Shown: positions 14,993-43,708 of the stretch, piece by piece | How positions within the stretch are numbered: the stretch's first letter is position 1 | Layout of the letters: every line of letters begins with the position of its first letter | Origin: an uncultured Candidatus Saccharibacteria bacterium | GTDB lineage: Bacteria > Patescibacteriota > Minisyncoccia > Phycocordibacterales > UBA9973 | Length of the DNA: 64,000 nucleotides | Reading direction: 5' to 3' | NCBI GenBank assembly: GCA_964573395.1 | Contig: CAZNJI010000005.1 | Coordinates: 7,759-71,758, forward strand | The notes under the pieces: model-generated | The model's database searches: none | What the model saw: the letters and a program-made list of their open reading frames with translations, nothing else | Told to the model about the DNA's origin: nothing | Program-made: the position numbers and the translations under genes

Positions 14993-15064
14993 GTCCTGGT
15001 GGCCAAGTGGTAAGGCGGAGCTCTGCAAAAGCTCTATACGCGAGTTCGATTCTCGCCCAGGACT
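14993..15064 (+). tRNA. tRNA-Cys(GCA)
   Basis: Acceptor gtcctgg/ccaggac, anticodon stem gagct/agctc with loop cuGCAaa, T-loop ttcgatt. Confidence 0.8.
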
Positions 15065-15143
15065 CCCTAAAACATTTGCTTCGCAAATGTTCGGGCGAAT
15101 AATTTGCCCGAGGCAAATTGTTTTAGCCACAACGTAATACATT

Positions 15144-15227
<84 letters not shown>

Positions 15228-15284
15228 CAAATAAAAAAAGAGTTTTGTGGTCAGGGATAAATACATAATTTGCAGGAATCTCAC

Positions 15285-15371
15285 AAGCTGGGAAACCCAC
15301 GGTTTTCCCAATCCTTCCTCCACGGGGAAACAGCAGTTTCCCCGACCCCCTTCTGGTTCGAATCCTGCTAG
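15285..15371 (+). repeat. tRNA-3'-end-associated two-hairpin module, copy B
   Basis: 15291-15319 is an exact inverted match to 8252-8280. Hairpin ggggaaac-agca-gtttcccc shows a compensatory G-C versus A-T change relative to copy A. It ends with ggttcgaatcctgctag, identical to the sense 3' end of tRNA-Lys on the other strand. Confidence 0.6.
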
Positions 15372-15424
15372 ACTAATCAATGTAACAAAAAATTCCTAGC
15401 AATAAGCTAAGAATTTTTTATTAT

Positions 15425-15498
15425 GTGCGCCTAGCAGGATTCGAACCTGCGACCGTTTGCTTAAGAGGCAACTGCTCTACCGACTGAGCTATAGGCGC
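15425..15498 (-). tRNA. tRNA-Lys(CUU)
   Basis: Minus-strand fold: gcgccta.. acceptor, anticodon loop cuCUUaa, T-arm gcagg-ttcgaat-cctgc. Confidence 0.8.
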
Positions 15499-15509
15499 TT
15501 ATAAAAATG

Positions 15510-15594
15510 TGCCGAGGAGAGGACTTGAACCTCCACAGGTGTAACCCTACCTGCTCCTAAGGCAGGCGCGTCTACCAATTTCGCCACCTCGGCA
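15510..15594 (-). tRNA. tRNA-Leu(UAG)
   Basis: Minus-strand fold: acceptor gccgagg, anticodon stem cctgc/gcagg with loop cuUAGga, long variable arm. Confidence 0.8.
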
Positions 15595-15715: not shown

Positions 15716-16936
15716 ATGGCATCAAACAAACGTCCGCTATTTCTGTTTACCCCTGAAAAAGGTAAGCATTATATCCTCACCAAATTCAACAAGGAAGTTG
15801 AGGAGGTATTCTACGATCCGAATAATCCGACAGAAGACGAGCCCTCTCTTTTATTCCTTATCCCCTACTTTTGGCAATTAGCCCAGTGGCAGCTTGAATG
15901 GACTGAAAGGATGAGCAAAGATGAAGCAATCGCCCGGAGAGAAAAAATTAAAAACGATCCGTTCCGAAGCCTTGAAATCTTGCTCGATCTTCCAACTGCA
16001 ACTGAAGGACAACAATTAACCCAAGAAGGGAAAGAATCTGAGAAAACCGATGAAGCGAAATCGCTTCAGGTTATCGTTGTTCGGAAAGAGCCAGTTTGGT
16101 ACTTGTTTCATTTGGAAGCTCACCCTGTTATTGTTCCGTTTACTACAGAAGACGGGAGCGACTTCCTGCTCATCGTGCAAGCAGCGTATCAAACCAATGA
16201 TGCAATCCTCGCAAAAACAAGCGTGAAAAACTATTTGTCGTTTGCGGAGGTTCAAATTTCAGAGGCGCTGGGAACTATTGGAAGAAATAAAACGTTCGAC
16301 CAAGCCCTAAAAATCGATTCTGAAAATTTCGGAGATTTTGTCTCGGAAGGAATTACTATTGCTGATAACAGCTCTGAGACAAGAAGAAAGAAAAAAAGCG
16401 GCATCATCAAAGTCATCAAATACCTCAACAAAGAAAAGTTTAGAAAGTTAGGATTTGAGCTCACCGATCTCATGTTCACCCGAGTGCTGGTAACCAGAAG
16501 GTCTCATGACATTTTGGAACAAAAAGAAAACCTGAAAAAAGCCGTGCTGCAAAATCAGATCGCAGAAGAGCAGGCAAATGCTTTTAAAAAGCATCGCCAG
16601 GCTCAAATCGACATGCAGCGCAAAGAAGGCATCATTGTTTCAAAGAACATGCGCGACCAACTGCAAGAGGTTTACCGTTTCGACTACCATGAATCTCAAT
16701 TGGTAGACAAAACAACGACAACCATTGCTCAAAACCTGGGAGCAACGCACGGGAAATTAACCCTCCTCGGAGAATCATTTCTGTCTAAAAAATCAGAAAT
16801 GTACAAAGAGGCAGTGCTTGCAAACATGACTACCGAAGAAGAGCCTGATGTTGCAGGCACCATTGAAGAGGCAAACAAACAACAGAAAACGCCAAACAAA
16901 CGAAAAGGAGGTAAATATGGCAAACCAAGGAACTAA
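15716..16936 (+). CDS. Hypothetical protein with a Lys-rich C-terminus
   Basis: 406-aa ORF with ordinary coding composition and no recognisable motif. Confidence 0.5.
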   Translation: MASNKRPLFLFTPEKGKHYILTKFNKEVEEVFYDPNNPTEDEPSLLFLIPYFWQLAQWQLEWTERMSKDEAIARREKIKNDPFRSLEILLDLPTATEGQQLTQEGKESEKTDEAKSLQVIVVRKEPVWYLFHLEAHPVIVPFTTEDGSDFLLIVQAAYQTNDAILAKTSVKNYLSFAEVQISEALGTIGRNKTFDQALKIDSENFGDFVSEGITIADNSSETRRKKKSGIIKVIKYLNKEKFRKLGFELTDLMFTRVLVTRRSHDILEQKENLKKAVLQNQIAEEQANAFKKHRQAQIDMQRKEGIIVSKNMRDQLQEVYRFDYHESQLVDKTTTTIAQNLGATHGKLTLLGESFLSKKSEMYKEAVLANMTTEEEPDVAGTIEEANKQQKTPNKRKGGKYGKPRN

Positions 16937-17603
16937 CAAAAGGCGTAGGCTGCAGCCATGGTGGGTAAAAATAGCATGGTGGACAGCAGTGCTCTTAGCT
17001 TTTGCTATCATCATAGGGCTACTCATTCTCATTTTCAGCATTCCCTGGTATTGGCTGCTGCTTGGAATCGCAGCGATTTATCTCCTTTCGCAAGGAAGAT
17101 CGATCGGATCAGTTACTGTTCCTGGCATAGGATGGAAATGGGTACTTGGAATTCTAATTGGTACTGGAGTTCTACTCAGCCTTCCATCCATCATCGGCTG
17201 GATTAAAACAAAGACTGAAACAGGATATTACGCCTGGGCGAAACGCTACTACGAGAACCTTTCAGAAGAAGAGAAAATCAAAGCTGGAATAGGTTGGAGT
17301 ACCATCAGTCAAGGAGAAACAAAATATTTGTTTCTCCAAAGGGATAAAAGCCGCACTTTTGAATTCGACGGATTAGAGAACGGTGATACCGTTACTGCCC
17401 GCCTGATGCGAAGAGATACTGATTCGCCGCGGATGATTGCCGTTTGGACGGAGGGTAACCCAATTTACATTAATGGCTATCCTTATGGAACAAAAGAAGA
17501 TGTGGATGGTTTTCCTATCGACTTTGAAACAAATCTGAGCCCAGGGTTGTACCTGGTAACAGTCAACAAAAAAATCAAAATGCGCTTTGCCAAAGAATGG
17601 TAA
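16917..17603 (+). CDS. Hypothetical membrane protein (2 TM)
   Basis: MANQGTNKRRRLQPWWVKIAWWTAVLLAFAIIIGLLILIF.. then a soluble C-terminal domain. Confidence 0.5.
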   Translation: MANQGTNKRRRLQPWWVKIAWWTAVLLAFAIIIGLLILIFSIPWYWLLLGIAAIYLLSQGRSIGSVTVPGIGWKWVLGILIGTGVLLSLPSIIGWIKTKTETGYYAWAKRYYENLSEEEKIKAGIGWSTISQGETKYLFLQRDKSRTFEFDGLENGDTVTARLMRRDTDSPRMIAVWTEGNPIYINGYPYGTKEDVDGFPIDFETNLSPGLYLVTVNKKIKMRFAKEW

Positions 17604-17648: not shown

Positions 17649-17981
17649 TTATTTCATCTTCACTGACGGCAGAACGGGAGTATTTATTTTCTGCTCATTG
17701 ACGTTCACGTAGCTGAGCCCGAAAATACTGACGAGAAGGTTTAGTATACCGAAGACGCTTACCATGATGACCATCCCGATGATGCCCCAGAGCATATGCC
17801 GCTGGCCTTTTTCCTTCGCCTCTTTATTGGCGCCGTTGCGAATGAACGCAACCATGCCGTAGAGAAAATACGCAAGGGCAATGGCAAACGCAACGCTAAT
17901 GAGTGGGTTAAATATAAACTTGTTCAGCTTATACACCAGCTCCTGAACGCCGTCTGCGGCATAGACGACAGGGTCAAACAT
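17649..17981 (-). CDS. TrbC/VirB2-like (T4SS pilin-like) small membrane protein
   Basis: About 110 aa with two hydrophobic helices separated by the charged loop NGANKEAKEKGQRHMLWGIIGMVIMVS. It is paralogous to three downstream genes. Confidence 0.5.
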   Translation of the reverse strand: MFDPVVYAADGVQELVYKLNKFIFNPLISVAFAIALAYFLYGMVAFIRNGANKEAKEKGQRHMLWGIIGMVIMVSVFGILNLLVSIFGLSYVNVNEQKINTPVLPSVKMK

Positions 17982-17999
17982 ATCGTAAGAACTCTTTTA

Positions 18000-18407
18000 T
18001 TAGATACAACTTCCAGAAGGGCCAACCGGGCGAGTTCCTGGAGGACAAGGGAGTTTATTCACTGAATTTGCTCCTGCTCCAATGCCAAGTGTGTTTCCAA
18101 TAAAGTACACGATTCCCCATACTGACACAATCACGAAGAGTCCGATAATGCCGGCAACCATCTGCTTTCTTTTTTCAGTACGCTTTGCGGCATCGCTTGT
18201 CGTAACAAACTGAATGACGGTCCAAATGAAATAGAGCGTTGCAAGAATCATCAAGAAGGTGATTCCCATGCGGGCATATTCAAATACTTTTGCCACCCAA
18301 AAATCAACTTGGCCGGTATTTGGAACGCCTGCCGTCTGAGCTAATGTAACTGCAGGTATAATAAGTGAAACACCAAATACAGTTACGGATTGAAGAAACT
18401 TTTTCAT
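18000..18407 (-). CDS. TrbC/VirB2-like pilin-family protein
   Basis: Signal peptide MKKFLQSVTVFGVSLIIPAVTLAQTAG, TM1, loop DAAKRTEKRKQ, TM2 MVAGIIGLFVIVSVWGIVYFIG. Confidence 0.55.
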   Translation of the reverse strand: MKKFLQSVTVFGVSLIIPAVTLAQTAGVPNTGQVDFWVAKVFEYARMGITFLMILATLYFIWTVIQFVTTSDAAKRTEKRKQMVAGIIGLFVIVSVWGIVYFIGNTLGIGAGANSVNKLPCPPGTRPVGPSGSCI

Positions 18408-18480
18408 AATAAAAAATAAATAAATTGGTAATTACTAAACCCGGTACCCGCCTGGGCACGGTATTAAAATTATACCACAC

Positions 18481-20289
18481 CTACTCCTCTTTCAATTGTG
18501 GCGGAAAGTCGAACCTGAACCCGAGCGTATCCGTTGCCAAGCGCACAATGCCCCAAATTGACACCATAATAAAGAGCGCAATAATCGCCCACAGCATGTA
18601 GCGCCTGCCTTCAGCCCGCTTGTCGGTTGAATCCGCCGCCATGTAATACTTGATGACGCCATAAATAAACAAGAGGGTGGCAAGTACGAAGGCAAGCGGA
18701 ACGAATATTCGGGAAACAATGTTTTGAATCGTACAGGAAATAGCCTTAAAACTAGTGAAGCGGAAATTAATTTGGGCACAAGTTAAGCTGGCATCAGAAA
18801 CCGTTTCGCTGGTAAGGTCCTTTCCCCCGCCAAGGTCGCCAAACGGCGAACTGCCGATGACCCCAGAGCTTGCCTTCTTGCAAGTTAAGTTCTGCCAATA
18901 ATAGGTGTTCGCTATGTACAGATACACCGGCTTTCTTGTCTTTACCCCATTCTCATTCGTTACTTCCTGATAGCCGATCGGCTTATCATCGTAGCCGTCG
19001 CAGTCAGTATCGCGGTTTTGGATACTGAAACCGCTCGGGCACATTTTCTTGTAAAAAGGCTCGTTCGGAAGCAGAATCATGTTTCCTTTCGCATCCCTTC
19101 TTCCCGAATATCCGGATCCGTTCGAATCGGCATAGCCGTCGCAGTTGCGGTCTACTTTCGTTGGGCACATCAGTGTCCAGTCAGCCATCGCTTCGCTTGT
19201 ACCAAGCAAATCGGTCCCTGTTCGATCATCGATACCATCGCAATCAGTATCGCGCGGCTGGCAGAGCTGCTGCCACGCCGGCAATTTATCGATAGTTTTT
19301 AAATTCTCACCCGAAATATCATCAGTGCCGTCGCAATTTTGATCGATGTACCGAATTGTCGCAGAGCAATCAAGTTTCCAGCTTTGCGTATTTGTAATGT
19401 CCAAACATATCGGTTGCGGAACATTCGGCTGGGCAACGTATCCCGGTTCTGCAACATTAGCGCAGCTTGGCAGTGTTCCATACTGCTTTGTCGGGTCCTG
19501 ATTCGTATATCCGAGCGGCGTATCATCGTACCCATCGCAGTTCGCATCATGGCCGTTGCTTCTATATCCGCTTGGGCATTGGAGCTTATGAATATTAAAA
19601 TCAGTTCTTTGTTGGGAGTTTTGCGGATTATCAACAAAATACTTTATGCCGGTAAAATCTGAATATCCATCGCAGTTCTGGTCTATTTTTCCCGGACAGA
19701 GCGATCCCCAAATCTGCCACAGTTCCGGTTCGTTTGGGTTAAAGAAACTAATCTTTAACACATCATCAACCCCGTCGCAATTTGCATCTTTATATTGGGT
19801 TGGATCCGGGCAGATGCGATTCCAGTAATCCGTTTTTCTGACATCAATGTTCGGATATCTATCATCTCTCCCATCACAATTATTGTCTTTATTTTCCGAC
19901 GAAAACCCGTTTGGGCACTGCCGGGCAAGCGCTAGTTCTGCATCAGTAACCAACTGGCCATTCTCAATTGTTTCTGAAAACATCCGAGTGCCGTTTAGGT
20001 CTGATCGTCCGTCGCAGTTCTTATCAACCTTTCCCGGACACAACAGCGTCCAAGCAGCCCGAGTGATTGTATTACTCAACATATTCAGCCCGGTAATGTC
20101 TTCATTACTGTCGCAATCTAAGTCTTTAAACGGAAGCGGCCCGAGCTGTCCGAGCCCCTGCGAACCTTGCGCATGTGCCGGCAGCGGCATGCTGAAAAAA
20201 CTTCCGAATATGAGCGGAAAGAAAATTGCCACGAGCAAAATGTTCTTAGCCAGTGATCTCATTGACCGTTGTGACGATTGCGGAAGCAA
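18481..20289 (-). CDS. Secreted Cys-repeat protein with a C-terminal TrbC/VirB2-like pilin domain
   Basis: Signal peptide, ten repeats of ..CP....N/DCDGxxD.., then a C-terminus FVLATLLFIYGVIKYYMAADSTDKRAEGRRYMLWAIIALFIMVSIWGIV matching the neighbouring pilin-like genes. Confidence 0.6.
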   Translation of the reverse strand: MLPQSSQRSMRSLAKNILLVAIFFPLIFGSFFSMPLPAHAQGSQGLGQLGPLPFKDLDCDSNEDITGLNMLSNTITRAAWTLLCPGKVDKNCDGRSDLNGTRMFSETIENGQLVTDAELALARQCPNGFSSENKDNNCDGRDDRYPNIDVRKTDYWNRICPDPTQYKDANCDGVDDVLKISFFNPNEPELWQIWGSLCPGKIDQNCDGYSDFTGIKYFVDNPQNSQQRTDFNIHKLQCPSGYRSNGHDANCDGYDDTPLGYTNQDPTKQYGTLPSCANVAEPGYVAQPNVPQPICLDITNTQSWKLDCSATIRYIDQNCDGTDDISGENLKTIDKLPAWQQLCQPRDTDCDGIDDRTGTDLLGTSEAMADWTLMCPTKVDRNCDGYADSNGSGYSGRRDAKGNMILLPNEPFYKKMCPSGFSIQNRDTDCDGYDDKPIGYQEVTNENGVKTRKPVYLYIANTYYWQNLTCKKASSGVIGSSPFGDLGGGKDLTSETVSDASLTCAQINFRFTSFKAISCTIQNIVSRIFVPLAFVLATLLFIYGVIKYYMAADSTDKRAEGRRYMLWAIIALFIMVSIWGIVRLATDTLGFRFDFPPQLKEE

Positions 20290-20785
20290 TCGTCCATGCT
20301 CCTAATATAAGCAGCGCTCCGATAAGCGTGTACCAGAACATGCGTTTTGCTTTTTCGATGGTTTCCTTGTTGCCGCGAGCCGTGACGAACAAGAAGCCGG
20401 CGTAAATGAAGAATAGGACGATAAATGGAATGGCAACGGTAAGGATGGCATCCATAATCTTTTTAATCAGTTTTGGAATGGTGTCGGTTTCGCCGAGCGG
20501 ATTTTTCAGTTTGATATCGATTTTTACACTATCAGCAGCAGATGATCCCGATTGCTGGCCAGGAATAGATTCGCTATTGTCGGAGGTAGAGCTGCAATCC
20601 GGGTCAAATGTTGCTCCCGAACCGAAATCCCTCTTACCGTCACCATCGTTGTCATTTCCATCATTACATTCAGTAGTGGTAGATCCCACGGAACCTTGTG
20701 CCATTGCTTTTGGCAGACTACCGACTGCTCCAAGCAAATAACATGACAAGAAAATGGTGAGAAAAAATATTCGCATTAGTTTCAT
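20246..20785 (-). CDS. TrbC/VirB2-like pilin-family protein with an acidic Cys-containing N-region
   Basis: ECNDGNDNDGDGKRDF..DPDC, then IPFIVLFFIYAGFLFVTARGNKETIEKAKRMFWYTLIGALLILGAWTI. Confidence 0.5.
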   Translation of the reverse strand: MKLMRIFFLTIFLSCYLLGAVGSLPKAMAQGSVGSTTTECNDGNDNDGDGKRDFGSGATFDPDCSSTSDNSESIPGQQSGSSAADSVKIDIKLKNPLGETDTIPKLIKKIMDAILTVAIPFIVLFFIYAGFLFVTARGNKETIEKAKRMFWYTLIGALLILGAWTIASAIVTTVNEITG

Positions 20786-20789
20786 TATA

Positions 20790-21191
20790 TCATTCAAAAA
20801 ATCTAAGCCCTGCATCATAGCCGAGCGTTACCATGATCATCTTCACGATGAGCCACGAAGAAAGCACCAAGAGCAGCCCGAGAATCGCCTTCCAAAGCAT
20901 TCCTTTTACTTTTGCATGCACACCCGGATTTCCCTGGGCAGTAATGTACAGATATCCCGCATAGAGCAAAATGAAAACGAAGATAGGAAGTACGAGATAC
21001 TCAATCGACTTTTCAATGAGCGTATTAATAAGAGTTAAGAGATGGCTAAAACCGCAATCATTCGTGCATGGCACCAGGCCAGTATCATTTTGCGCATAAA
21101 CGGAGACAAAAAAACCGCTGAAAAGAAAAAAGAGGGTGAAAGCAGCCAATATGTTAGCGAATAAGGCTTTGCAGGGCGCGGTTTGCTTCAT
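20790..21191 (-). CDS. TrbC/VirB2-like pilin-family protein
   Basis: Signal peptide, VPCTNDCG, then LPIFVFILLYAGYLYITAQGNPGVHAKVKGMLWKAILGLLLVLSSWLIV. Confidence 0.5.
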   Translation of the reverse strand: MKQTAPCKALFANILAAFTLFFLFSGFFVSVYAQNDTGLVPCTNDCGFSHLLTLINTLIEKSIEYLVLPIFVFILLYAGYLYITAQGNPGVHAKVKGMLWKAILGLLLVLSSWLIVKMIMVTLGYDAGLRFFE

Positions 21192-22446
21192 AGATTGCTT
21201 CCGTCGGCGACATCCGACCGGAACTGACATTGGTAATCATAGCACGAAAAACATCATCGCTCTTCGCTTCGTCGGGGTCTGGCCATGAAAACACGGAAAC
21301 TGCCGTGCCGAAAAATACGTTCATGTACGGATTATCAGGCCTCAGCACCAATAAATCGCGCCGAGCCGGCGGGATGGACATGGTTTTCGAGAGATAGTCG
21401 GAGAATCCGACGCCGGCAAGCTCAAGCATTGCTGAATACGCGCTCACAAAATTTTGCGAAGCCTTTACCGTTGCAATGCCGGTAAAATCCGCAAACACGA
21501 CCGGCCGCTCCGTTTCTTCCGGCTGCGGCACTTCCGTGACGTCGAAATTAAGGTTCGGGTTTTGCGCTCGTATCTGGAATAAATCGGAAGCAGTGCCTAT
21601 GTAGAATGCGGCTTTTCCGGCGACAAACATATCAAGCGAATTCGGAAGCGATCGATTCCACGAATAGAACTCATTCACCGGGTTGGCAAACGAAATGTAG
21701 TACATGAGCGCTTCTCCGGCTGGAGTGCCTCCCTCGATGGTTCGGTCGAGCTGTGCCCCGTAACGCAGTGTCAGCGGATCTTCCGCAACGATGCGATTGC
21801 CTGTTTGCAGGAACAAATTTGAAAGAATCTTTTTAAAATAGCGAACGTTTACCGATTCGCCAAGCGGCAGCGCCGTTTGGGTTATGGCGCCGGCAGTATC
21901 GCGCTTGACGAAAAACGGTAGGAACCGGTTCAGCTCTTCCCAAGTGCGCGGCGGCGTAATGATGCCGACACGGGCAAGCATGTCTTTATTGTAGTAGAGA
22001 ACGAGCGGGTCAACGGTAAGTGGAAATGCCGCTATCCCCTCTTGGTTCAGAAAAACGCTTGCCCCATCAATGTAGGTATCCCGATATAACCGTTCCGAAT
22101 AGCTGGTAAAAGGAACCGGAAAGAGCTTGTCTTTATTCCGCAAGAACGTACTGCTGGTAACGAGTACTAAGTCGGGGCCAGTGCCGGACGCAAGCGCTTC
22201 AATGAATGATTCGGTAAAAACATCAGGTGCAATCGCCGTATAGACAACTGAATATGGTTTTCCTTTGTTAAATTCATTAATGTACGGCTCAACGTTTTCC
22301 ACCGGAATGGTTCCCCAGAGCGCAACGGTTCCTCCGGCGCCCGGAGTGTTCGATGAACCAATTTTGATAATGCCGGCAAAAACAAGTACGGCGAAAAAGA
22401 AAATGAGTACGAAAACAGCAAGGAGAATAATGTGAAAATTACGCAT
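21154..22446 (-). CDS. N-terminally anchored extracellular solute-binding-protein-like protein (ABC SBP family 1-like)
   Basis: A TM anchor, then a ~400-aa alpha/beta domain with SBP-like segments (LWGTIPVE.., FPLTVDPLVLYYNKDML). Confidence 0.5.
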   Translation of the reverse strand: MRNFHIILLAVFVLIFFFAVLVFAGIIKIGSSNTPGAGGTVALWGTIPVENVEPYINEFNKGKPYSVVYTAIAPDVFTESFIEALASGTGPDLVLVTSSTFLRNKDKLFPVPFTSYSERLYRDTYIDGASVFLNQEGIAAFPLTVDPLVLYYNKDMLARVGIITPPRTWEELNRFLPFFVKRDTAGAITQTALPLGESVNVRYFKKILSNLFLQTGNRIVAEDPLTLRYGAQLDRTIEGGTPAGEALMYYISFANPVNEFYSWNRSLPNSLDMFVAGKAAFYIGTASDLFQIRAQNPNLNFDVTEVPQPEETERPVVFADFTGIATVKASQNFVSAYSAMLELAGVGFSDYLSKTMSIPPARRDLLVLRPDNPYMNVFFGTAVSVFSWPDPDEAKSDDVFRAMITNVSSGRMSPTEAIYEANRALQSLIR

Positions 22447-34611: not shown

Positions 34612-34976
34612 TCCCCTGTAGCTCAGCGGTAGAGCAGTCGCCTGTAACATGAACAATGTTCAAATAGCAGCTTCCCGATCGAAAGACGGGTCGAAAAACG
34701 AAGTGAATTGACTGGAAATCCTGATCACACAGGATAATCAGCAGCCAAGCCCAGCCGTGAATCCAATAAGTTATTGAACTCACAACTGGGAAGGTTCAGA
34801 GACTATCTCGAAAGAGAGTACTCTCAGCCGTATTTTGTTTATAAAAAAATACGGCTAGGCGGAAGCGCTTCGCACCTTCCCTTTTTATTAAGAATGGTGA
34901 TGATATAGTCCATACCCGCAGTAATGCGAGAATATATGTAAGCGATTGGTCGTAGGTTCGAATCCTACCGGGGGAG
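34612..34976 (+). tRNA. tRNA-Asn(GUU) interrupted in the anticodon loop (between positions 35/36) by a ~293-nt intron-like insert (34646-34938)
   Basis: 5' exon: tcccctg-ta-gctc-agcggta-gagc-a-gtcgc-cugu. 3' exon: uaa-gcgat-tggtc-gtagg-ttcgaat-cctac-cggggga-g. Acceptor 7/7 paired (with U6-G67), and the G73 discriminator is typical of tRNA-Asn. The insert ends in G and contains CAGCCAAG and AGACUA P7-like motifs. Confidence 0.55.
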
Positions 34977-36641
34977 CAAAGTCGAACAAACATCCCTGAA
35001 AATAGGATTTTGTTCCGAAACATCAATGATATTTTCAGGTTCGAACTGTATGTTCTTCTGTTTTGCCGCACTTAGTCCATCAATTAGAGTTTGAAACTCT
35101 TCTGCGTTGGTAATACTCATTTTTTCTTCATTCCAGATAAGGTTCGATTTAAACTTCTTCAAAACAACTCGTTTAGCCTTGGTATCATCTGAAGAAAGAA
35201 CATCCACGAAAGATTGTGTTAAATCAACAATTTCACGCATTCGTATTGACCAATCCTGTCTTTGTATTGATTGCGTTTTAAGCTCAGCAACTTCCCTATC
35301 AATTTTTTCAGCATCTTTTTTGTAATCATCGGGAGAAGTTACACCATCGTTTAAATACTGTCGTGCTCGGTCCTTGCGTGCAAGAAGCTGTTCAAGGTGA
35401 CTTTTTCTTCCTTGTTCAATCGTTACAATGTGCTCTACTTCTCTATCTTTCATTTCTTGAATATTTCTCCTGCACCAATCCGCTAAAGCTGGCGATAGTT
35501 GAAGATTTTCCTTAACGTAGCTGATTAAGTAGTCAGTAATACAAGATTCTTCAATATATCGAGCTTTGAGTTTTTTCTTTCTACGACTGACGTTGTAATA
35601 GTAATGGTATGAGAGGTATTTAGGGCTCTTAATTTCTGCAAGTGTTTTGTTGCATTTAGGGCAACAGTCCTTGTTCTGGTAGGAGAATTTATATTTGCAC
35701 TCGCAAATTAATTGAAGCTTTATATCTGGACCAATAAATTCACCGTAAGGAGATTTAATAAAACCACTATAAGGAGTTAAGTGCTCTTTTGTCTTTGGAA
35801 CACTTCTATCTCCAAGCATTCTGCGTACCTTGTAATGTTCTGCCTCGGTTATCATTCGAGGTAATTCTGGAGCAAGCTCATATCGTTCTCCTCCATAGTA
35901 AAAGAAGCCTGCAAAAATAGGGTCTTTCAAAATTTCATAAATACGTGAGTAAGTAATAAATTTCCCACCAATTCTTTTACTCTTCCGTGTTGTGAACTTA
36001 ACTTCATTTACTGCCCACTCATAGAGCTGTGTTCCGGAATAGCTTCCGGAAAGAAACATACTGAACATCTGTTTGATAATGTTAAACCGATCCTCATCTA
36101 CTAACCACTTCCTATTTCCCTTTTCTTCGCTTCGATCATTTTTAAACCCAAGAGCCGCAAGACCATGTGGGTATCCCATGCTAGCTTTCTTTGCCTGCCC
36201 TCGTTTTACGTTTACCGAAAGATCTCGACTAAACTGATTAGCTGAACCAAATTCAACTGACATAAGGAGTGCATTTTCGTTTGGAAGATATACTTTAGTA
36301 GGAGTAATAATTGCTTTGATGATTCCTTTTTGAAGTAAGTCTATTATGAGCCCTCCATCAACCATGTTTCGAGCAAGACGGTCCAATTTCCAGCAGATAA
36401 TTGCATTGATTTTTCCCTCATGTAGGTCTTTAATCATTCGCTTATAAATCTCACGCTCTCCGGCAAAATGTGCCGATTTTGCTTCTTCATACAATTCTGA
36501 CTTCACTATTTCCCAATATGAAATTAGACGCTCTGCCTCTTCCTTTTGGGCTGGAATTGAAAGGACCTGTTTTTCTTCAGATTCTTGCGATTTCCTACAA
36601 TAAATTCCTGGAATTAAATCTTTTATTTGGTTCCTGTCCAT
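34965..36641 (-). CDS. Large serine recombinase (site-specific integrase)
   Basis: Resolvase catalytic domain (IYCRKSQESEEKQ..S, KLDRLARN), a recombinase domain, and a Zn-ribbon CECKYK..CCPKC. The last 4 codons overlap the tRNA-Asn T-arm/acceptor. Confidence 0.9.
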   Translation of the reverse strand: MDRNQIKDLIPGIYCRKSQESEEKQVLSIPAQKEEAERLISYWEIVKSELYEEAKSAHFAGEREIYKRMIKDLHEGKINAIICWKLDRLARNMVDGGLIIDLLQKGIIKAIITPTKVYLPNENALLMSVEFGSANQFSRDLSVNVKRGQAKKASMGYPHGLAALGFKNDRSEEKGNRKWLVDEDRFNIIKQMFSMFLSGSYSGTQLYEWAVNEVKFTTRKSKRIGGKFITYSRIYEILKDPIFAGFFYYGGERYELAPELPRMITEAEHYKVRRMLGDRSVPKTKEHLTPYSGFIKSPYGEFIGPDIKLQLICECKYKFSYQNKDCCPKCNKTLAEIKSPKYLSYHYYYNVSRRKKKLKARYIEESCITDYLISYVKENLQLSPALADWCRRNIQEMKDREVEHIVTIEQGRKSHLEQLLARKDRARQYLNDGVTSPDDYKKDAEKIDREVAELKTQSIQRQDWSIRMREIVDLTQSFVDVLSSDDTKAKRVVLKKFKSNLIWNEEKMSITNAEEFQTLIDGLSAAKQKNIQFEPENIIDVSEQNPIFRDVCSTLLPR

Positions 36642-37009
36642 AATTGGTTATCTATATTATTTTAACTCATTTTTACGTAGCACCCGACCTTTCTGCCTAT
36701 AATGCATGGCATACCGATAATTTATGTAACAATCTAGGTATAAATACTGACGGCCTCTGCCCTAGAACTCCTGCATATGGTTCATTCTCTGAAGTTCCCT
36801 CTCTTAGGCATCATATTTATTGACCATATGAGGTGCTTATTAATGGGCTGGGTGCGGTGTAGGTCGTCGAAACGCATTATTCCCAGCTTTCACATAAACA
36901 CCCCATGTAGCCTTCATTTTCGTGTACATTGACCAATGTACCTTATTAAAGCGGTGTCTTTTTATCGCGAGTATTCACCAAAGTTCGCTGTGTAGATTGA
37001 ATTGTCGAA

Positions 37010-37225
37010 TCATTTTTTTTCCTGTTTAATAGACTCAACAAATAATGTAAGTAGAAAATCACCGATATTATTTATATCTGTATCAGATAGTTTTTGTGCG
37101 CCAGAATGACCTATTTCGTTTTGTAAGACAAAACGTAAATCATCAATCGCTTTTTGACTTAATCTTCTTATCTCTTCCACTGTTGTGTGCCTATTAAATA
37201 AACACAGAACAAAAAAGCCGAGCAC
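37010..37225 (-). CDS. Hypothetical small protein
   Basis: ORF followed by terminator 37211-37252 (aaaaaagccgagc..gctcggctttttt). Confidence 0.3.
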   Translation of the reverse strand: MLGFFVLCLFNRHTTVEEIRRLSQKAIDDLRFVLQNEIGHSGAQKLSDTDINNIGDFLLTLFVESIKQEKK

Positions 37226-37514
37226 CTAATATTAGGTTGTCTCGGCTTTTTTGTAAGGGAATACAACCTAGGTTAAATTAGGTTATATTCCCTTAGAGAA
37301 ATAAGGAAACGTTGCACTGTTCTATAACTCGAATCGCTGTTTCTTGATGGTCACATAAAGCGCCCTCACAAGTTGCTAGAATTTGACTTTAAAAGTTCTG
37401 TAGCAAAACACCCACCACAACTGTAAGGTATTGGAGTACATATTGTTGTGAGGGATGTTTTACTCTCCAATACCTAATTTTATTTTAGTAAATAAAAATC
37501 AAATTGTCTATAAG

Positions 37515-37530
37515 TTGATTTAGAAATCAA
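37515..37530. promoter_or_regulatory. Palindromic site TTGATTTAGAAATCAA (copy 1)
   Basis: Identical 16-mer with 7-bp inverted arms, repeated at 38304. Confidence 0.4.
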
Positions 37531-37544
37531 GAAATCAAGTTTAA

Positions 37545-37691
37545 TTAATCCTCAAAACCACCTAATAAAGCGATTATTATTCCCATAACAACAAGTGAAG
37601 CAATCGCTGTCCAGAAACCGCCCATTAATAATGCAATGATAAAAACAATTACGGCTAATATTCTCATGAATATATGAATAAAAAACTTCAT
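37545..37691 (-). CDS. Tiny hydrophobic protein (48 aa, below track cutoff)
   Basis: Manual translation: MKFFIHIFMRILAVIVFIIALLMGGFWTAIASLVVMGIIIALLGGFED. Confidence 0.3.
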   Translation of the reverse strand: MKFFIHIFMRILAVIVFIIALLMGGFWTAIASLVVMGIIIALLGGFED

Positions 37692-37693
37692 TT

Positions 37694-37924
37694 TTAATCT
37701 TTCTTAACCAAACTATATTCCTTCGGTTTCTTTCCAGTAATCTTATGAATTACTTTATTAGCGATAGTACATCCAATTACTACAGCAATGATTAAAGGTA
37801 TAAGTCCTTGAACAATAAGACCATTAACAATACCTATTACAATCAAAACAATAAATAACCCAACAATATAAGCAATGATTATTCTTCCTGTACTAGGCTT
37901 CTTAATATTTAACTCTTCATTCAT
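37694..37924 (-). CDS. Small membrane protein (2 TM)
   Basis: 76-aa ORF adjacent to the tiny hydrophobic ORF. Confidence 0.4.
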   Translation of the reverse strand: MNEELNIKKPSTGRIIIAYIVGLFIVLIVIGIVNGLIVQGLIPLIIAVVIGCTIANKVIHKITGKKPKEYSLVKKD

Positions 37925-38303
37925 AGTTTAATTTTTTGTTTAAAAACAATAAAACATTCTTTTAATAATTAAATGGGTTTTTGTATATAAAACGCAAAAA
38001 GCCCAACACGAAGGTGGTAGCTTGCGCTACCCATACCAGTTTCCCGGTATGACCAGTGACGGCAGACCCTTCGATGTTGGGTTCTTTGCACGTCACTGGT
38101 TTTTCTTCACCATGCCAGCCCTAGGGGCTGGTTTAGGCTACTTCGCTAAGTATTACACGAAAATATGAAGTTTTCTACAGATAGGTTTAAAAACCCAAAA
38201 ACCCAAGAAATCCATATTTTCTTAGGTAGATAAGAGTCCGGTTTTTAAACCGGAAAACCCGATATTTTGGTTTAAAAACCAAAAAAACAATAACCCTTAA
38301 AAA

Positions 38304-38319
38304 TTGATTTAGAAATCAA
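38304..38319. promoter_or_regulatory. Palindromic site TTGATTTAGAAATCAA (copy 2), 36 bp upstream of the 38356 operon
   Basis: Exact repeat of the 37515 site. Confidence 0.4.
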
Positions 38320-38355
38320 TTAATCAGAAATTGGCTTGTAAACACAAATATAGCT

Positions 38356-39273
38356 ATGATGCCAAATATGGAAAACTCTCCCACCCCTAAAACAATGTTT
38401 ACTGATACATTTCCTGATGATATTACGTCTGACGAAGAATTAGATGTTATAAAAGCTCAATATCCAGATTACGATGATTATTATGTGGCGAGTGGTTCCA
38501 TTAAGGAACGTAGAGAAAGTTTTGATGCAATGTATCAAATATACGCTCCTTATGCCGATAAACACTTTCTTTCCGATCTAAAAAAGCATTTCCATGAACG
38601 AACATGGGAAATGTATATTGGATATACCCTAATAAAAAATGGTGTCTCATTTACATCCACAAATAAAGGACCAGATATTCTTATTGAAACACCTGAAGGG
38701 AAAATATGGATTGAAGCTGTTGTTTGTAACAGTGGAGATGGCCCAGATCGTGTCCCAGCTATGATATATGGTGTAGCCTCAGATGTACCCGATGATGAAA
38801 TGATTATCAGAATGGCAAATAGCCTTGATGCCAAATTTAAAAAATATCAAAAATATATTAATGAAGATATTGTGTCAGTAGAAGATAAATTAATCATTGC
38901 TGTAAACGCCGGTATTTTTAGCCACGTAGTTGATGGAGATATGCCACTTATTCTAAAAGCAATTTTTGCTATCGGATTCCGAACATTATCATTACCAATC
39001 GACGGAAAAGGACCAGTAAAACCAGGGATCTCGACTAGAAATTTTATTGAAAAGAAAAATGGAAGCAAGGTTGCAACCACTTTCTTTTTAGAAAAAGAAC
39101 ATGCTTCAATTAGTGCTGTTTTATATACCAGTAGAACAGTGCTTAATCAAGATGAGCCAGCTGGGACTAATATAATGGTAGTTCGTAATCCAATAGCTAC
39201 TAATCCTCTCCCGGATGATGCGTTCCCATTTATGCATCAAATTATTACTAAAGGAGGCATTATAGAATTATGA
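38356..39273 (+). CDS. Hypothetical protein (possible PD-(D/E)xK-like nuclease), first gene of a 3-gene operon
   Basis: 305 aa with GPDILIETPEGKIWIEAVV resembling a D..ExK core. Its stop overlaps the next start (ATGA). Confidence 0.45.
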   Translation: MMPNMENSPTPKTMFTDTFPDDITSDEELDVIKAQYPDYDDYYVASGSIKERRESFDAMYQIYAPYADKHFLSDLKKHFHERTWEMYIGYTLIKNGVSFTSTNKGPDILIETPEGKIWIEAVVCNSGDGPDRVPAMIYGVASDVPDDEMIIRMANSLDAKFKKYQKYINEDIVSVEDKLIIAVNAGIFSHVVDGDMPLILKAIFAIGFRTLSLPIDGKGPVKPGISTRNFIEKKNGSKVATTFFLEKEHASISAVLYTSRTVLNQDEPAGTNIMVVRNPIATNPLPDDAFPFMHQIITKGGIIEL

Positions 39274-40268
39274 AAACCTGCATTTATTGTAGATCGCAGA
39301 ATCAATCTTTATTTAAAGGGGTTGAGCATCTTATACCCCAAAGTTTTGGTACTTTCAGCTCTGAGACTCCAACGTTAAAATGTGTTTGTGATGAGTGCAA
39401 TGCTTTCTTTGCAAAAGAACTCGACCAAATACTTGCTCGTGACAGCTGGGAAGGTGTAGAGAGATACAAAAAAGGAATTAAATCCAGAGAACAAAGACCT
39501 ATTAAGAGACTAAAATTTAGTCTCGAAAATACCCCAGAAATGGGCGAATTTGGCGGAATGGTTTTTGAAGGTGTTGATGCTACTACAGGAAAATTACTAC
39601 ATCCGAAAGGGCAATTTCATATAAAAAACATTAAAACTAAAAAATTTGATGTCTTCTTTACAGATGCAATAAAAAATATAAAACTTGATGATGAAACGTA
39701 TGGAGTAAAAGGCACGAGAGAAACAAAAATATTTGCAAATTCTGAAGAAGAACACCAAGCTGTTTTTGATGAAGTAAGAAAAATTATTCCGACTTATAAA
39801 ATAAAAGAAAAATTTCAACCTCCATTTATTCAAGGTAGAAAAGATGATGAAGTAATTGAACTTCCAATTTGGATTGAGGGAACTATTGATCATCCTATAA
39901 AAAGAGGATTAATAAAGATTCTTCTAAATTTTTCAGCTTACTATATTGGAAATGAAGAAGTTCTTAAGTCGGAATGGGATAAAGCAAGAGACTACGTTAG
40001 ACTTAATTCAGAACCAATCTTGGGTAAAGCTGATACTAAACCTTTCTGGGGAGATGAAACAGAAGTAATGCGTCTCCCAAATGATAGCTTTAATATTCTT
40101 GTTGAGAATAAAGGTAAAGATGTAATAGGAAAAATCCAAATATATAATTTTTATACCCACACCTTTATTCTCGCTGAGAATCACAGTATTCCTATAGGAA
40201 AAGAAAAAGCTATGCGCTTTACTAAAGGAAAACCTCCATACCGCGCAGAAAAAAGAACAGTGTTTTAA
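39270..40268 (+). CDS. HNH endonuclease-domain protein
   Basis: N-terminal CIYCRS..FKGVEHLIPQSFG HNH motif plus a second Cys pair CVCDEC. Confidence 0.65.
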   Translation: MKTCIYCRSQNQSLFKGVEHLIPQSFGTFSSETPTLKCVCDECNAFFAKELDQILARDSWEGVERYKKGIKSREQRPIKRLKFSLENTPEMGEFGGMVFEGVDATTGKLLHPKGQFHIKNIKTKKFDVFFTDAIKNIKLDDETYGVKGTRETKIFANSEEEHQAVFDEVRKIIPTYKIKEKFQPPFIQGRKDDEVIELPIWIEGTIDHPIKRGLIKILLNFSAYYIGNEEVLKSEWDKARDYVRLNSEPILGKADTKPFWGDETEVMRLPNDSFNILVENKGKDVIGKIQIYNFYTHTFILAENHSIPIGKEKAMRFTKGKPPYRAEKRTVF

Positions 40269-40302
40269 ATATTAATTAAAAACCACCTTTTTAGTTATTT
40301 TT

Positions 40303-40980
40303 ATGAAGCTACTAGAAATATTTAATACTCGGGAATTAGCGACAATAGTATGGGTCATTATTTTATTTGTATATCTTATCCGAAAACCAGAAATTCGCTC
40401 TAGTTTACTGCGATTTTTAAAAAGTGTTTTTAAATTATGGAAAATAGTGCTTAGCATGATTATCTACATCATTTTCTGTATTTTTATTTTGCACAAAATG
40501 TCGTTCTGGAATATGGATTTACTTAAATTAACAATTTTTTGGTTTTTTGGTTGGGCTTCTGTAATGTTTATAAACCTCAACGATATACAAAAAAATAAAA
40601 GTTACCTCAAAAAAGTACTAGTTAATATTTTAGGGTTAACAGTTGTTATTTCATTTATCACAAATTTCTATACATTTCCCTTTATAGCTGAACTGATCCT
40701 TTTACCAATCATTACGATCCTTTTAGTATTCACAGTTATGCCTCAAATTAAAGGCAACCTAAAAGTAAATAGACTCATAAACCAAGTACTAATTGTTTTT
40801 GGACTTATTGTATTAGCTATTAATATAAAGAGAGTAATATGTAATTTCCAAACTTTCTCCTCTATGAACACTCTACTAGAATTTCTTCTACCAATAATCC
40901 TATCCTTAATGTTTTTACCGTATCTTTATTTACTATTCCTTTATTCAGAATGTGAACAAAAGAAAATAAAGGGTAAATAA
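40303..40980 (+). CDS. Polytopic membrane protein (about 6 TM), probably co-transcribed with the HNH gene
   Basis: Hydrophobic throughout; 34-nt gap from the upstream gene. Confidence 0.5.
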   Translation: MKLLEIFNTRELATIVWVIILFVYLIRKPEIRSSLLRFLKSVFKLWKIVLSMIIYIIFCIFILHKMSFWNMDLLKLTIFWFFGWASVMFINLNDIQKNKSYLKKVLVNILGLTVVISFITNFYTFPFIAELILLPIITILLVFTVMPQIKGNLKVNRLINQVLIVFGLIVLAINIKRVICNFQTFSSMNTLLEFLLPIILSLMFLPYLYLLFLYSECEQKKIKGK

Positions 40981-41039
40981 TATTCCGAAGATCTGTACAT
41001 AAGGCGGAGTTCTTCTGGTAATTTGTTACAATCTAACCT

Positions 41040-41801
41040 ATGCCAACAGAGGCTCATTTTACGCTATACCTCGATGAAACTGGGGATCATCTTCTTTACT
41101 CAGAGGAAGAATACCTTCAAAATTCAGAACTAGAAAGTCATTGTACTCTCTTAGGCTACATCCTTCAAAATGACGTTAAGCCTATTGTAAAAGAAGGACT
41201 CAAAGCCTTGAAAAGAGAATTTTGGAAGACGGATGAAGTTATATTACATAGTGTAAAGATACGTCATAAACAAGGATGCTTCGCTTTGTTTCATTACATA
41301 CCTGAAATGTATGAGAAATTTAAGGTTCGATTAATGGAGATTATTAAACTATCTAACCCCGTGATTGTATGTAGTTCACTAGACAAGCGATTATGGATTA
41401 AAAAATATCCAAGGAAATACTACTTTAAAGACGATCCTTATGATCAGGCATTTATTTTTCTTCTGGAAAAATATGCGCGTTTTCTTAACGATCAGAAATA
41501 CGACAAAGTGGTTGGTCGAATATCTGTTGAAAAAAGAGATCCCGCCAGAGACAAATCGCTAAGAGAGACATATACGAGCGTAAAGAGAAATGGTACTCAA
41601 TTTCGCAATAAAAACTTTTTCGATAAACTCTCGGATAAAATGGATTTTGACAGTAAAGGATTCAATATTCCCGGTTTGCAATTGAGTGACTATTGTTCAT
41701 ATCCTTTTTATATAAACCATAAATTTCCTACTCGAGATAATAAATTATATGAACTACTTAAGACATATATTTATAACTGTGGACATAAAAAATGGCCCTA
41801 A
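41040..41801 (+). CDS. DUF3800-like protein
   Basis: N-terminal LYLDETGD resembles the DUF3800 signature (hydrophobic-YIDESG); 253 aa. Confidence 0.5.
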   Translation: MPTEAHFTLYLDETGDHLLYSEEEYLQNSELESHCTLLGYILQNDVKPIVKEGLKALKREFWKTDEVILHSVKIRHKQGCFALFHYIPEMYEKFKVRLMEIIKLSNPVIVCSSLDKRLWIKKYPRKYYFKDDPYDQAFIFLLEKYARFLNDQKYDKVVGRISVEKRDPARDKSLRETYTSVKRNGTQFRNKNFFDKLSDKMDFDSKGFNIPGLQLSDYCSYPFYINHKFPTRDNKLYELLKTYIYNCGHKKWP

Positions 41802-41944
41802 AAAACACAAAAGAGCTCGTATTGAGCTCTTTTGTGACCCCTCATTCGAAGGGAAAATATCACTGAATGATACCTTTTAATTATATATTAAAGAACAATC
41901 TTGTATACATAGTTATTAACAGTCCATCAACGTTCGGAACAAAC

Positions 41945-42451
41945 TCAATGGATAGAAATAAAACCATCATCATAATGCTCTTTAAATTTAATTAAGTTAG
42001 TGTCATCAAGTTTGTTTTGAGAAATATACAATTTTGCCGCCTCGATTATGTCTTTACAAAATGTATGAATATTGATTATCATTTTTCGTGGCTGTATAAC
42101 TCCTTTATTATAATTACCTCCCAAATAACCGAAATGAGATGAACTTTTTTCCGTTAAAACCACAAATTTATCAAAAACGTCCTTAAAATACTTCTCATCT
42201 TGAGTTGTTACATCGTCAGTTCCCTGGTGTAGAGCAGCACATCGAAAAGCCCAACAAATTTTCCCGGGAATGCCTCTACTTGCATATGTAGGCATATTTT
42301 CGTTAAACCATTGTATATATTTCTCTCCTAAACCCCTCTTTCCTTCTTTTATTGAAACGCATATATCTGGAATTGTTAAGGCAATAAATAATGCTCCGAA
42401 GAAGGCTTTATTTTCTAAACATATCTCAATTGAATCACCCAATTCATTCAT
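41945..42451 (-). CDS. Hypothetical protein (downstream gene of a 2-gene operon)
   Basis: 168-aa ORF, 3 nt after the upstream gene. Confidence 0.4.
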   Translation of the reverse strand: MNELGDSIEICLENKAFFGALFIALTIPDICVSIKEGKRGLGEKYIQWFNENMPTYASRGIPGKICWAFRCAALHQGTDDVTTQDEKYFKDVFDKFVVLTEKSSSHFGYLGGNYNKGVIQPRKMIINIHTFCKDIIEAAKLYISQNKLDDTNLIKFKEHYDDGFISIH

Positions 42452-42454
42452 AAA

Positions 42455-42817
42455 CTAAGATTTAACTATCTTCTTTTTTATTGAATCAACAAATAGGCGG
42501 AATGCAGGACGGTTCTCTTTATCGTAAATAATCTTTACTCCCAGTAAGTGGCCTTTATCACAAGAGAGATCTTTTTTTGAGATAGAAACTTTTGGCTCAA
42601 TAATCCTATCATGGTACATACGGCGAAGATTGCCTGGACCATCTTTTTGATAGTGGCAAATGTGAGCTCCGCATTTCTCGCATGAGATAGCGAGCAGCCG
42701 GGAGTACCCGCCTCTTACCTTCTTATATCGATCATTCTTGAAGCTATTCTTTTTCACGTCGTGAGTATAGCATTCCGAACATCCTCCAACGTTCGGAGCC
42801 ATCAAAAAACAGCTCAA
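42455..42817 (-). CDS. Hypothetical Zn-ribbon protein
   Basis: CSEC..CEKCGAHICH Cys/His cluster; 120 aa. Confidence 0.4.
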   Translation of the reverse strand: MSCFLMAPNVGGCSECYTHDVKKNSFKNDRYKKVRGGYSRLLAISCEKCGAHICHYQKDGPGNLRRMYHDRIIEPKVSISKKDLSCDKGHLLGVKIIYDKENRPAFRLFVDSIKKKIVKS

Positions 42818-42871
42818 ATACAGGGCTGTTTTTTGTTGCCCCAGTAGGGTTCAGAACTCAAATTTGTTACT

Positions 42872-43582
42872 ATGATAGTAATGAAAAAGTTTATTATTTA
42901 CACACTACTGTCAGTATGTCTTCTCATAGTATGCGGATATGGTTTGCTTCAAGTTAGCAAATCCCGCACCTTTCAATTCTTTGGTAGCATTGTAAGTCGG
43001 GTTGATACTGAAGAAAAAGTAATTGCCCTTACATTTGATGATGGACCAGAAAGTTATACCAATGAGATATTGAGTGTGCTTAAAAAGAAACAAGTAAAAG
43101 CTACGTTTTATGTAATTGGTGAGAGATTGCAAGAAAACTTAGAGATTGGAAAACGTATTACAGACGAAGGCCACGAATTAGGTAATCACTCGTATACTCA
43201 TCAGCGATTTTTATTCAAATCACAATCCTTTATTGATAGCGAGATACAAAGAACTAATCAACTTATTCGTGAGACAGGATATGGAGGAGCTATCACGTTT
43301 CGCCCGCCATATGGGAAAAAACTATTCGGGCTTCCGTGGTATCTAAATAAACACAACATTGAAACCATTATGGTTGATGTTGAACCCGATACCTATGGAA
43401 CAACATCCGACTTTTTTGTTGAATATACAGTTGCTAATACAAAAGCGGGTTCTATTATTTTGCTTCATCCATTCTGTGAGACCTGCATCGAACAAAGAAA
43501 AGCTGTTCCACTCATAATAGATGCACTAAAGGAAAAGGGTTATACCTTTGTTACTGTTTCTGAGCTACTTTCTAAAAGATAA
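42872..43582 (+). CDS. Polysaccharide deacetylase (NodB-homology domain)
   Basis: TFDDGPESYT.., ATFYVIG.., GHELGNHSYTH motifs; N-terminal TM. Confidence 0.8.
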   Translation: MIVMKKFIIYTLLSVCLLIVCGYGLLQVSKSRTFQFFGSIVSRVDTEEKVIALTFDDGPESYTNEILSVLKKKQVKATFYVIGERLQENLEIGKRITDEGHELGNHSYTHQRFLFKSQSFIDSEIQRTNQLIRETGYGGAITFRPPYGKKLFGLPWYLNKHNIETIMVDVEPDTYGTTSDFFVEYTVANTKAGSIILLHPFCETCIEQRKAVPLIIDALKEKGYTFVTVSELLSKR

Positions 43583-43595
43583 GTTTAGAGAAATC

Positions 43596-43702: not shown

Positions 43703-43708
43703 AAATAT

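Follow-up and report, generated by a model that had tools for sequence, protein, structure and literature searches.

The window analysed here, a 64,000-nucleotide (64-kb) stretch of contig CAZNJI010000005.1, derives from an ultra-small bacterium of a small, rarely sampled and uncultivated clade of Paceibacterota (Patescibacteria, or candidate phyla radiation, CPR), and contains a gene whose product joins a large Cys-rich repeat domain to the helical hairpin of conjugation-type (VirB2-like) pilins. This gene, hereinafter the giant pilin, is the third member of a conserved chromosomal array of five VirB2-like (PF18895) pilin genes, and its product is about five times the size usual for a pilin of this type. 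A prior sequence-only reading of the window had described a 602-aa protein of unusual architecture, and this union of a large repeat domain and a pilin hairpin in a single protein is upheld by our analysis. The open reading frame (ORF) at 18481..20289 on the minus strand was confirmed and gives 602 aa when read from TTG 20289, from which residues are numbered throughout. The true start is probably ATG 20262, which yields a 593-aa product, as the corresponding Met10 (MRSLAKN / MKSLAKK) is the start in all orthologues and in the gene callers of two public assemblies. Read from ATG 20262, the gene shares 17 nt with the end of the pilin gene upstream, including the stop of the latter. Scans for promoters and terminators returned signals at chance level only. 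The gene and its product comprise the following features:

18481..20262, minus strand: giant VirB2-like pilin gene ('pilin 3'), 593 aa from ATG 20262
20170..20262, minus strand: predicted Sec-type signal peptide, residues 10-40 (MRSLAKN...PLPAHA), with cleavage between AHA and QG, read from the sequence as a hydrophobic stretch
18775..20169, minus strand: acidic extracellular domain, residues 41-505, an orphan family
19822..20127, minus strand: super-repeat 1, residues 55-156, with a half C-loop (DLDCDSNED, Cys59), A-loop C84/C92, B-loop C125/C138 and IDVRKTDYW
19378..19821, minus strand: super-repeat 2, residues 157-304, with C-loop C160/C171, A-loop C198/C206, B-loop C238/C251, an insert with C276/C295, and LDITNTQSW
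18880..19377, minus strand: super-repeat 3, residues 305-470, with an extra C-type loop C308/C319, C-loop C343/C350, A-loop C375/C383, B-loop C417/C430, YIANTYYW and the lone Cys470
18751..18879, minus strand: Gly/Ser-rich linker, residues 471-513, a low-confidence prediction, containing Cys504
18526..18750, minus strand: VirB2-like helical hairpin, residues 514-588 (helix 1, basic loop AADSTDKRAEGRRY, helix 2; Cys519), with the PF18895 match at 520-584

The hairpin of the giant pilin matches the PF18895 (T4SS_pilin) profile over residues 520-584 with 37.8 bits (gathering score 26.6), and the four neighbouring pilins reach 28.3-41.1 bits, all above threshold. In profile-profile comparisons with hhalign the hairpin was related to the pilin-4 family with a probability of 98.5% (E = 2e-15, 41% identity over 66 columns), and more weakly to pilin 2 (62% probability). 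The two-helix C-terminal module earlier thought to be shared with the neighbouring proteins is thus a genuine common domain of all five. The accompanying term 'pilin-like' is apt for a pilin of type IV secretion (VirB2/TrbC-like, PF18895), and wrong if a pilin of type IV pili was meant. Two other models fell short for the giant pilin, with NCBIfam NF045849 remaining below its cut-off (31 vs 40 bits) and the TrbC profile PF04956 giving only E = 0.88 (6e-5 for pilin 2). Hydropathy analysis of the protein marked three stretches as hydrophobic (10-38, 519-552 and 563-588), the second and third being separated by the loop DKRAEGRR, and AlphaFold2 predicts helices at 514-550 and 555-588; R558, E560, G561 and R562 of the basic loop are invariant in the four orthologues. 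The first of these stretches bears out the signal peptide of the sequence-only reading as a Sec-type leader spanning residues 10-40, and the leaders of the paralogues end in the same A-Q junction. The giant pilin accordingly shows the layout typical of PF18895, with a signal peptide and two hydrophobic helices separated by a short basic loop, but not the small mature size typical of that family (~70-130 residues), as it would measure ~560 residues after processing and its four neighbours are of 110-190 aa. A sequence search of the PDB with the pilin-module profile recovered generic transmembrane-hairpin matches only (HtrII and G-protein-coupled receptors), with solved pilins absent, and Foldseek comparison with the Aeropyrum pernix conjugation pilus 8dfu was non-significant (E = 8.2, TM 0.58 on the target).

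The ectodomain (residues 41-505, 465 aa) is hydrophilic and acidic (69 D+E vs 42 K+R, with 2 His) and contains 23 of the 24 cysteines of the giant pilin. It has nine copies of the pattern D.[ND]C[DN]G..D, as against a mean of 0.0006 and a maximum of 1 in 20,000 residue shuffles, and a tenth, degenerate copy (DLDCDSNED, residue 59) opens the domain; hence both the ten repeats earlier announced and the nine actually listed are defensible counts. A looser Ca-loop pattern without the Cys, run over all six frames of the window, occurs nine times in the giant pilin, once in pilin 2 and nowhere else. The spaced Cys/Asp repeats noted earlier are thus present, although they are not ten equal units but are organised in three super-repeats (55-156, 157-304 and 305-470), each with three loop types, which align with one another at z = 23-29 vs shuffles in Smith-Waterman comparisons. 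The 'C' loop has the form C-x(6-11)-D-x-N-C-D-G-x-D-D, the 'A' loop W-x-x-L-C-P-x-K-[VI]-D-x-N-C-D-G-x-x-D and the 'B' loop Q-C-P-x-G-[FY]...D-x-x-C-D-G-x-D-D, and a fourth element of each super-repeat conforms to [IV]-D-[IV]-x-x-T-x-Y-W (the TDYW element). Alignment of the 12 units from four orthologues shows 23 invariant columns; the extra C-type loop (308-342) is peculiar to the window protein and missing from the orthologues. At the DNA level a repeat finder detected 6-, 5-, 3- and 2-copy families with 60-83% identity, so that the independent repeat detection earlier suggested as a check gave a positive outcome by both routes. With copies only this similar in DNA, the duplications are old and held by selection, rather than products of recent slippage.

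The cysteine content is even in each of the four orthologues (24, 20, 22 and 24); C276 and C295 are both missing in P0002, and every extra loop or insert adds exactly two Cys. To judge from this arrangement, each loop Cys is probably disulfide-bonded to the Cys situated 6-13 residues upstream. All 37 loop instances of the four proteins have D(-3), C(0) and D(+5), [ND](-1) and G(+2) occur in 35/37 each, and [DN](+1) is nearly invariant. The 37 loops follow the DxDxDG or EF-hand-like pattern D1-x-[DN]3-x-[DN]5-G6-x-x-D9 save for two substitutions at position 3 and two at G6, with the conserved residues falling on positions 1, 3, 5, 6 and 9 and the Cys occupying position 4 of the Ca-type loop. 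The Asp/Asn ligands of these loops probably hold Ca2+. Unit 1 opens with a C loop reduced to its second half (Cys59), the first half alone (Cys470) trails unit 3, and this split is conserved in the four orthologues. The complementarity of the two half-loops suggests a Cys59-Cys470 bond, which may close the three units into a ring. Likewise, Cys504 and Cys519 are conserved, one on each side of the junction between linker and hairpin, and may tie the linker to the helix.

This junction bears on one alternative view of the protein, namely that a propilin is made here from which a giant pro-region is removed: the ectodomain would be cut off near the hairpin to give a soluble secreted Ca-binding protein or an assembly chaperone, leaving a small pilin behind. 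VirB2-family pilins, such as TraA and TrbC, are known for long leaders and extra processing, and the low-confidence Gly/Ser-rich linker 471-513 does separate the ectodomain from the hairpin. Against this, no conserved cleavage motif was found in the linker, and the Cys504/Cys519 pair flanking the junction may hold together what such a cut would separate; we therefore consider a propilin of this kind improbable. The tripeptide 'CAQ' at 504-506, which MAFFT aligned with the leader A-Q of the paralogues, was considered as a vestigial cleavage site and rejected, as it is missing from the orthologues.

The ectodomain constitutes a compact new repeat family, almost an orphan with very few known members. 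No domain was found by Pfam and NCBIfam searches for residues 41-505, and the thrombospondin type-3 (TSP3) likeness noted earlier did not translate into detectable homology: TSP_3 (PF02412) gave nothing at E<=1 on the whole protein and nothing at E<=10 on pieces, Dockerin_1 was likewise not seen, and a search of the ectodomain against PDB sequences gave zero chains at E<=10, thrombospondin and COMP included. The comparison with thrombospondin type-3 repeats is therefore one of analogy and not of membership. The sole family signal on isolated pieces came from PF11617 (Cu-binding_MopE) with 13.6-20.4 bits vs a cut-off of 27, in alignments restricted to profile positions 17-29 and to 11-14 residues (E = 6e-4 to 0.08 on pieces), whereas a 22-column loop profile run against the PDB gave one motif-level match, to the dockerin loop DANCDGIVD (E = 1.7).

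The PF11617 repeats resemble those of the giant pilin in the core D-x-D-C-D-G-x-x-D, in the Cys at loop position 4 and in being spaced repeats of secreted proteins; however, even the best score is below the cut-off, the alignment is confined to the latter half of the 30-residue profile, and they have no counterpart to the upstream 'C-P-x-K-V' half, the TDYW element or the three-loop super-repeat. TSP3 repeats share the acidic DxDxDG-type loops with disulfide staples, and the nine-residue core of the above dockerin loop is identical in form to the C-loops. Unlike TSP3, dockerin and EF-hand loops, those of the giant pilin have the Cys inside the loop (position 4) rather than after it and mostly Gly at position 12, lack the loop-helix F-hand arrangement, and find no match by hidden Markov model (HMM) or PDB sequence. 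The sub-threshold PF11617 signal on the DxDCDGxxD half and the shared DxDxDG logic could be read as traces of a true TSP3 or MopE-type copper-binding repeat recruited to this protein. Given the failure of PF02412 even at E<=10, the shortness and weakness of the PF11617 alignments, the single dockerin loop as the only PDB return, and the ectodomain profile finding only its own family among 1.84e9 proteins, we regard such homology as very improbable; the presence of only 2 His in the ectodomain further argues against MopE-like copper sites. The acidic double-disulfide repeat NF033662 has no match in the giant pilin or its units and is unlike its repeats, whereas it resembles the insert of pilin 2 and an N-terminal insert of the orthologues P0004/P0005 (E = 1e-3 to 2e-6 for single copies, with pilin 2 and P0004 below the cut-off).

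A word-indexed search of 5.8 billion clusters recovered three non-self homologues of the giant pilin, 41-44% identical to it. The ectodomain HMM, run without a word filter against 1.84 billion representative proteins, gave two hits, P0003 and the fragment P0005, and a search with the 12-unit profile matched only the latter, which is the family's own fragment. Among 185,579 species-representative genomes there was one partial locus, in a metagenome-assembled genome (MAG) labelled 'Candidatus Paceibacterota bacterium', and scans of metagenome contigs returned nothing with the ectodomain and a single 1.2-kb contig with pilin 4. Thus about five members of the ectodomain family are known, all Paceibacterota-like and every one annotated as hypothetical. 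The search of related genomes that the sequence-only reading had proposed shows the architecture to be conserved in four genomes: it is uninterrupted in four independent assemblies from NCBI, ENA and Logan, with conserved Cys positions. A chimeric ORF, a pseudogene fusion or another artefact of assembly or annotation is therefore excluded for all practical purposes, as orthologues only 41-44% identical share this architecture. The hairpin is 60-68% identical among orthologues and the ectodomain drifts to ~45%.

The giant pilin lies in a constant gene order, which in the window and three other genomes (L002, L003 and L004) runs gyrA, a methyltransferase, a solute-binding protein, pilin 1, pilin 2, the giant pilin, pilin 4 and pilin 5, followed by two divergent unknown genes and then rbfA and infB. 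Its companions in the window are:

20790..21191, minus strand: pilin 1, 133 aa, PF18895, bearing the Cys pair PCTNDCG in its N-terminal part
20246..20818, minus strand: pilin 2, 190 aa, PF18895, bearing an acidic, Cys-containing insert that resembles NF033662 (ECNDGNDNDGDGKRD...DPDC)
18000..18407, minus strand: pilin 4, 135 aa, PF18895, with an invariant C-terminal LPCPPGTRPVGPSGSCI and the hairpin closest to that of the giant pilin
17649..17981, minus strand: pilin 5, 110 aa, PF18895, without signal peptide or Cys-pair decoration
21154..22446, minus strand: membrane-anchored solute-binding protein (SBP_bac_1), overlapping and directly preceding pilin 1 in all four genomes

Within the array the paralogues are only 16-32% identical to the hairpin of the giant pilin, and each has a 1:1 orthologue, with identities of 44-64% between the window and L004; pilins 4 and 5 are the best-conserved members. 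The short Cys-rich acidic inserts earlier noted in two paralogues are indeed present and are conserved in the orthologues. More generally, the array paralogues bear their own conserved Cys-pair decorations, pilin 5 excepted (window 17649-21230, minus strand; L003 1881-2435). In the distant MAG L003, pilin 2 bears 'VDDNCDGQDD...PC', which is the loop of the giant pilin, instead of the NF033662-like insert, and in the orthologues P0004/P0005 an NF033662-like module has been added ahead of the giant ectodomain. These two cases suggest that small acidic Cys modules have been exchanged among the paralogues.

The SBP_bac_1 gene also occurs at 7823-9121 in L002, 372-1670 in L004 and 84-1412 in L003, with an adjoining ABC permease or ATPase absent, and its product may act together with the pilin array, perhaps for uptake from a host. 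The two unknown genes downstream of the array, which are divergent to it (15716-17603, plus strand), encode proteins of 406 aa and of 251 aa, the latter with hydrophobic segments; they have no Pfam match and are syntenic in L002 and L004. Between rbfA and these flanking genes lie four tRNA genes (Cys-GCA, Leu-TAA, Lys-CTT and Leu-TAG; 14993-15593), a cluster not apparent in the L002/L004 gene tables, which list protein genes only.

Arrays of this general kind have been described before. VirB2-like pilins were reported from 1,948 Patescibacteria assemblies, with 441 arrays of 2-11 genes in 383 assemblies, ~25% identity within arrays and ~40% of the pilin genes away from virB4 (PMC12102498). In Southlakia epibionticum growth on the host requires a series of pilins (PMC10633639; PMC12857230), and a review speculates that the pilus might serve as a conduit to the host (PMC12857230). 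The array of the window is like these Patescibacterial arrays (Quinonero-Coronel et al. 2025, PMC12102498; Wang et al. 2023, PMC10633639) in its above-threshold PF18895 matches, its tandem divergent paralogues (five genes here, with ~25% identity), its topology of signal peptide and two-helix hairpin, and its monoderm CPR host. It is unlike them in that one member is 593 aa long with a 465-aa repeat ectodomain, virB4 is not within 64 kb, and the paralogues are stable 1:1 orthologues with Cys-pair decorations of their own. Given this stability across genomes, they do not resemble a fast-varying set. The literature on Patescibacterial pilins cited here calls them small and does not mention a large extracellular domain, and the supplementary tables of PMC12102498 neither list the present assemblies nor give protein lengths. 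Hence, while the VirB2-like arrays of Patescibacteria are already published, the giant member with its orphan repeat domain is new.

The position such a domain could take is constrained by the T-pilus, whose VirB2 subunits have both termini on the outside and depend on an Arg in the lumen (bioRxiv 10.1101/2022.09.25.509369). By analogy, the N-terminal 465-residue domain would point outward. The T-pilus has 5 subunits per 13.4 Å rise and a diameter of 76 Å (bioRxiv 10.1101/2022.09.25.509369), from which simple arithmetic gives ~640 Å² of outer surface per subunit vs the ~1,900 Å² cross-section of a 50-kDa globule. The ectodomain could therefore not be on every subunit, which makes a low-copy pilin most likely. 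We accordingly propose, with moderate confidence, that the giant pilin is either a low-copy pilin (at the tip or as sparse decoration) or a pilin-anchored surface protein, in both cases with a Ca-stabilised adhesin-like ectodomain; its likeliest role would be that of a low-copy pilus or surface adhesin. The protein would be exported by the Sec pathway and its leader cleaved between AHA and Q, and the hairpin would reside in the membrane as in VirB2 pilins, with both ends outward and the basic loop in the cytoplasm, or in the lumen once in a pilus. Its mature N-terminus would bear the acidic domain where ordinary pilins have a few residues. The small and best-conserved pilins 4 and 5 would build the filament or membrane assembly, which the giant paralogue would join as an adhesin, either in rare copies or at the tip, and the ectodomain would present a rigid Ca-stabilised binding surface to a host cell or substrate, in a role comparable to that of VirB5/PrgB.

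Several observations weigh against this proposal. We know of no pilus of this type that has been seen in Patescibacteria, and VirB4, VirB6, VirD4 or other core genes of a type IV secretion system (T4SS) were not found among the larger ORFs tested in the window; nor were T4SS core genes found in ~2 kb read beyond the window start, where only dprA and serS occur. Loop position 12 is mostly Gly, as opposed to the Glu/Asp of canonical EF-hand or dockerin loops, and hence the loops are not canonical EF-hands and their Ca2+ affinity is uncertain. The hairpin by itself retrieved a single protein in a word-indexed search, too few to gauge the rarity of long PF18895 proteins. Structure models give little guidance: the full-length AlphaFold2 model, built from 4 sequences, was poor, with a predicted local distance difference test score (pLDDT) of 54 and exclusively non-significant Foldseek matches, and the better model of one unit (343-470; 12-sequence alignment; pLDDT 76, predicted template modelling score 0.58) had no Foldseek neighbour at E<=0.001 in the PDB or BFVD, and therefore no functional hint.

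The lack of T4SS core genes nearby also favours the main rival, in which the giant pilin is a membrane-anchored surface protein only, whose hairpin is a two-helix anchor that never enters a filament and whose ectodomain acts at the cell surface, for example by organising the envelope or S-layer, by binding wall polymers in a Ca2+-dependent way or by contacting the host. It would further accommodate an ectodomain that, by T-pilus geometry, is too large for a regular pilus subunit, as well as the chromosomal location of the array among the housekeeping genes gyrA, infB and rbfA. On the other hand, a mere anchor does not readily explain the invariance of those basic-loop residues that in pili make contact with phospholipid, the better conservation of the hairpin than of the ectodomain among orthologues, or the constant place of the gene, in each of the genomes, within an array that has four pilins of ordinary size. 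We view this pilus-independent role as possible though doubtful, with the cleavable pro-domain and true TSP3/MopE homology discussed above less likely still.

The proposal of a low-copy pilin or pilin-anchored adhesin bears on an apparent gap in these systems. In other type IV secretion systems VirB5 or PrgB acts as the adhesin. The giant pilin would resemble these in its proposed role, as an adhesive component present in few copies on the cell surface or at the tip of the pilus, but has no sequence or fold relation to them, and its adhesive domain would be a covalent part of the VirB2-type pilin. PrgB-like adhesins were not detected in Patescibacteria (PMC12102498), and the giant pilin could be the missing adhesin of the secretion pili of these bacteria. 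VirB2-like arrays have only recently been recognised in epibiotic Patescibacteria and are essential in one cultivated species. The present array is a concrete candidate for a contact-making component, and one of its paralogues bears a 50-kDa, predicted disulfide- and probably Ca-stabilised domain on its outward end. The array further speaks for paralogues with specialised functions, as opposed to mere antigenic variation. A bolder extension, which is speculative and unlikely to hold in full, envisages heteromeric T4SS pili made of specialised, stably inherited paralogues, with the giant pilin as a tip 'pilin-adhesin' that docks onto the host through a three-fold pseudo-symmetric ring of new fold, comprising nine Ca2+ loops and closed by Cys59-Cys470. 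If true, such a tip pilin-adhesin would stand in for VirB5 or PrgB, adhesins that have not been found in the phylum.

Elsewhere in the window, a 1358-aa ORF (59335-63411, minus strand) has no Pfam family at E<=0.001, and the gene-position collection has no entry for its exact product, possibly on account of a different start call. A 430-aa protein (56570-57862, minus strand) carries a dockerin type I domain (29 bits) at its C-terminus, along with a weak match to bacterial Ig, and is another Ca-loop-bearing extracellular protein of the same genome. Finally, a low-GC island at ~34900-46000 (31-37% GC vs ~48% elsewhere) opens with a large serine recombinase (34965-36641, minus strand) and also encodes an HNH endonuclease, a DUF3800 protein and a polysaccharide deacetylase, while several of its ORFs lack a Pfam match; this island is probably an integrated mobile element.

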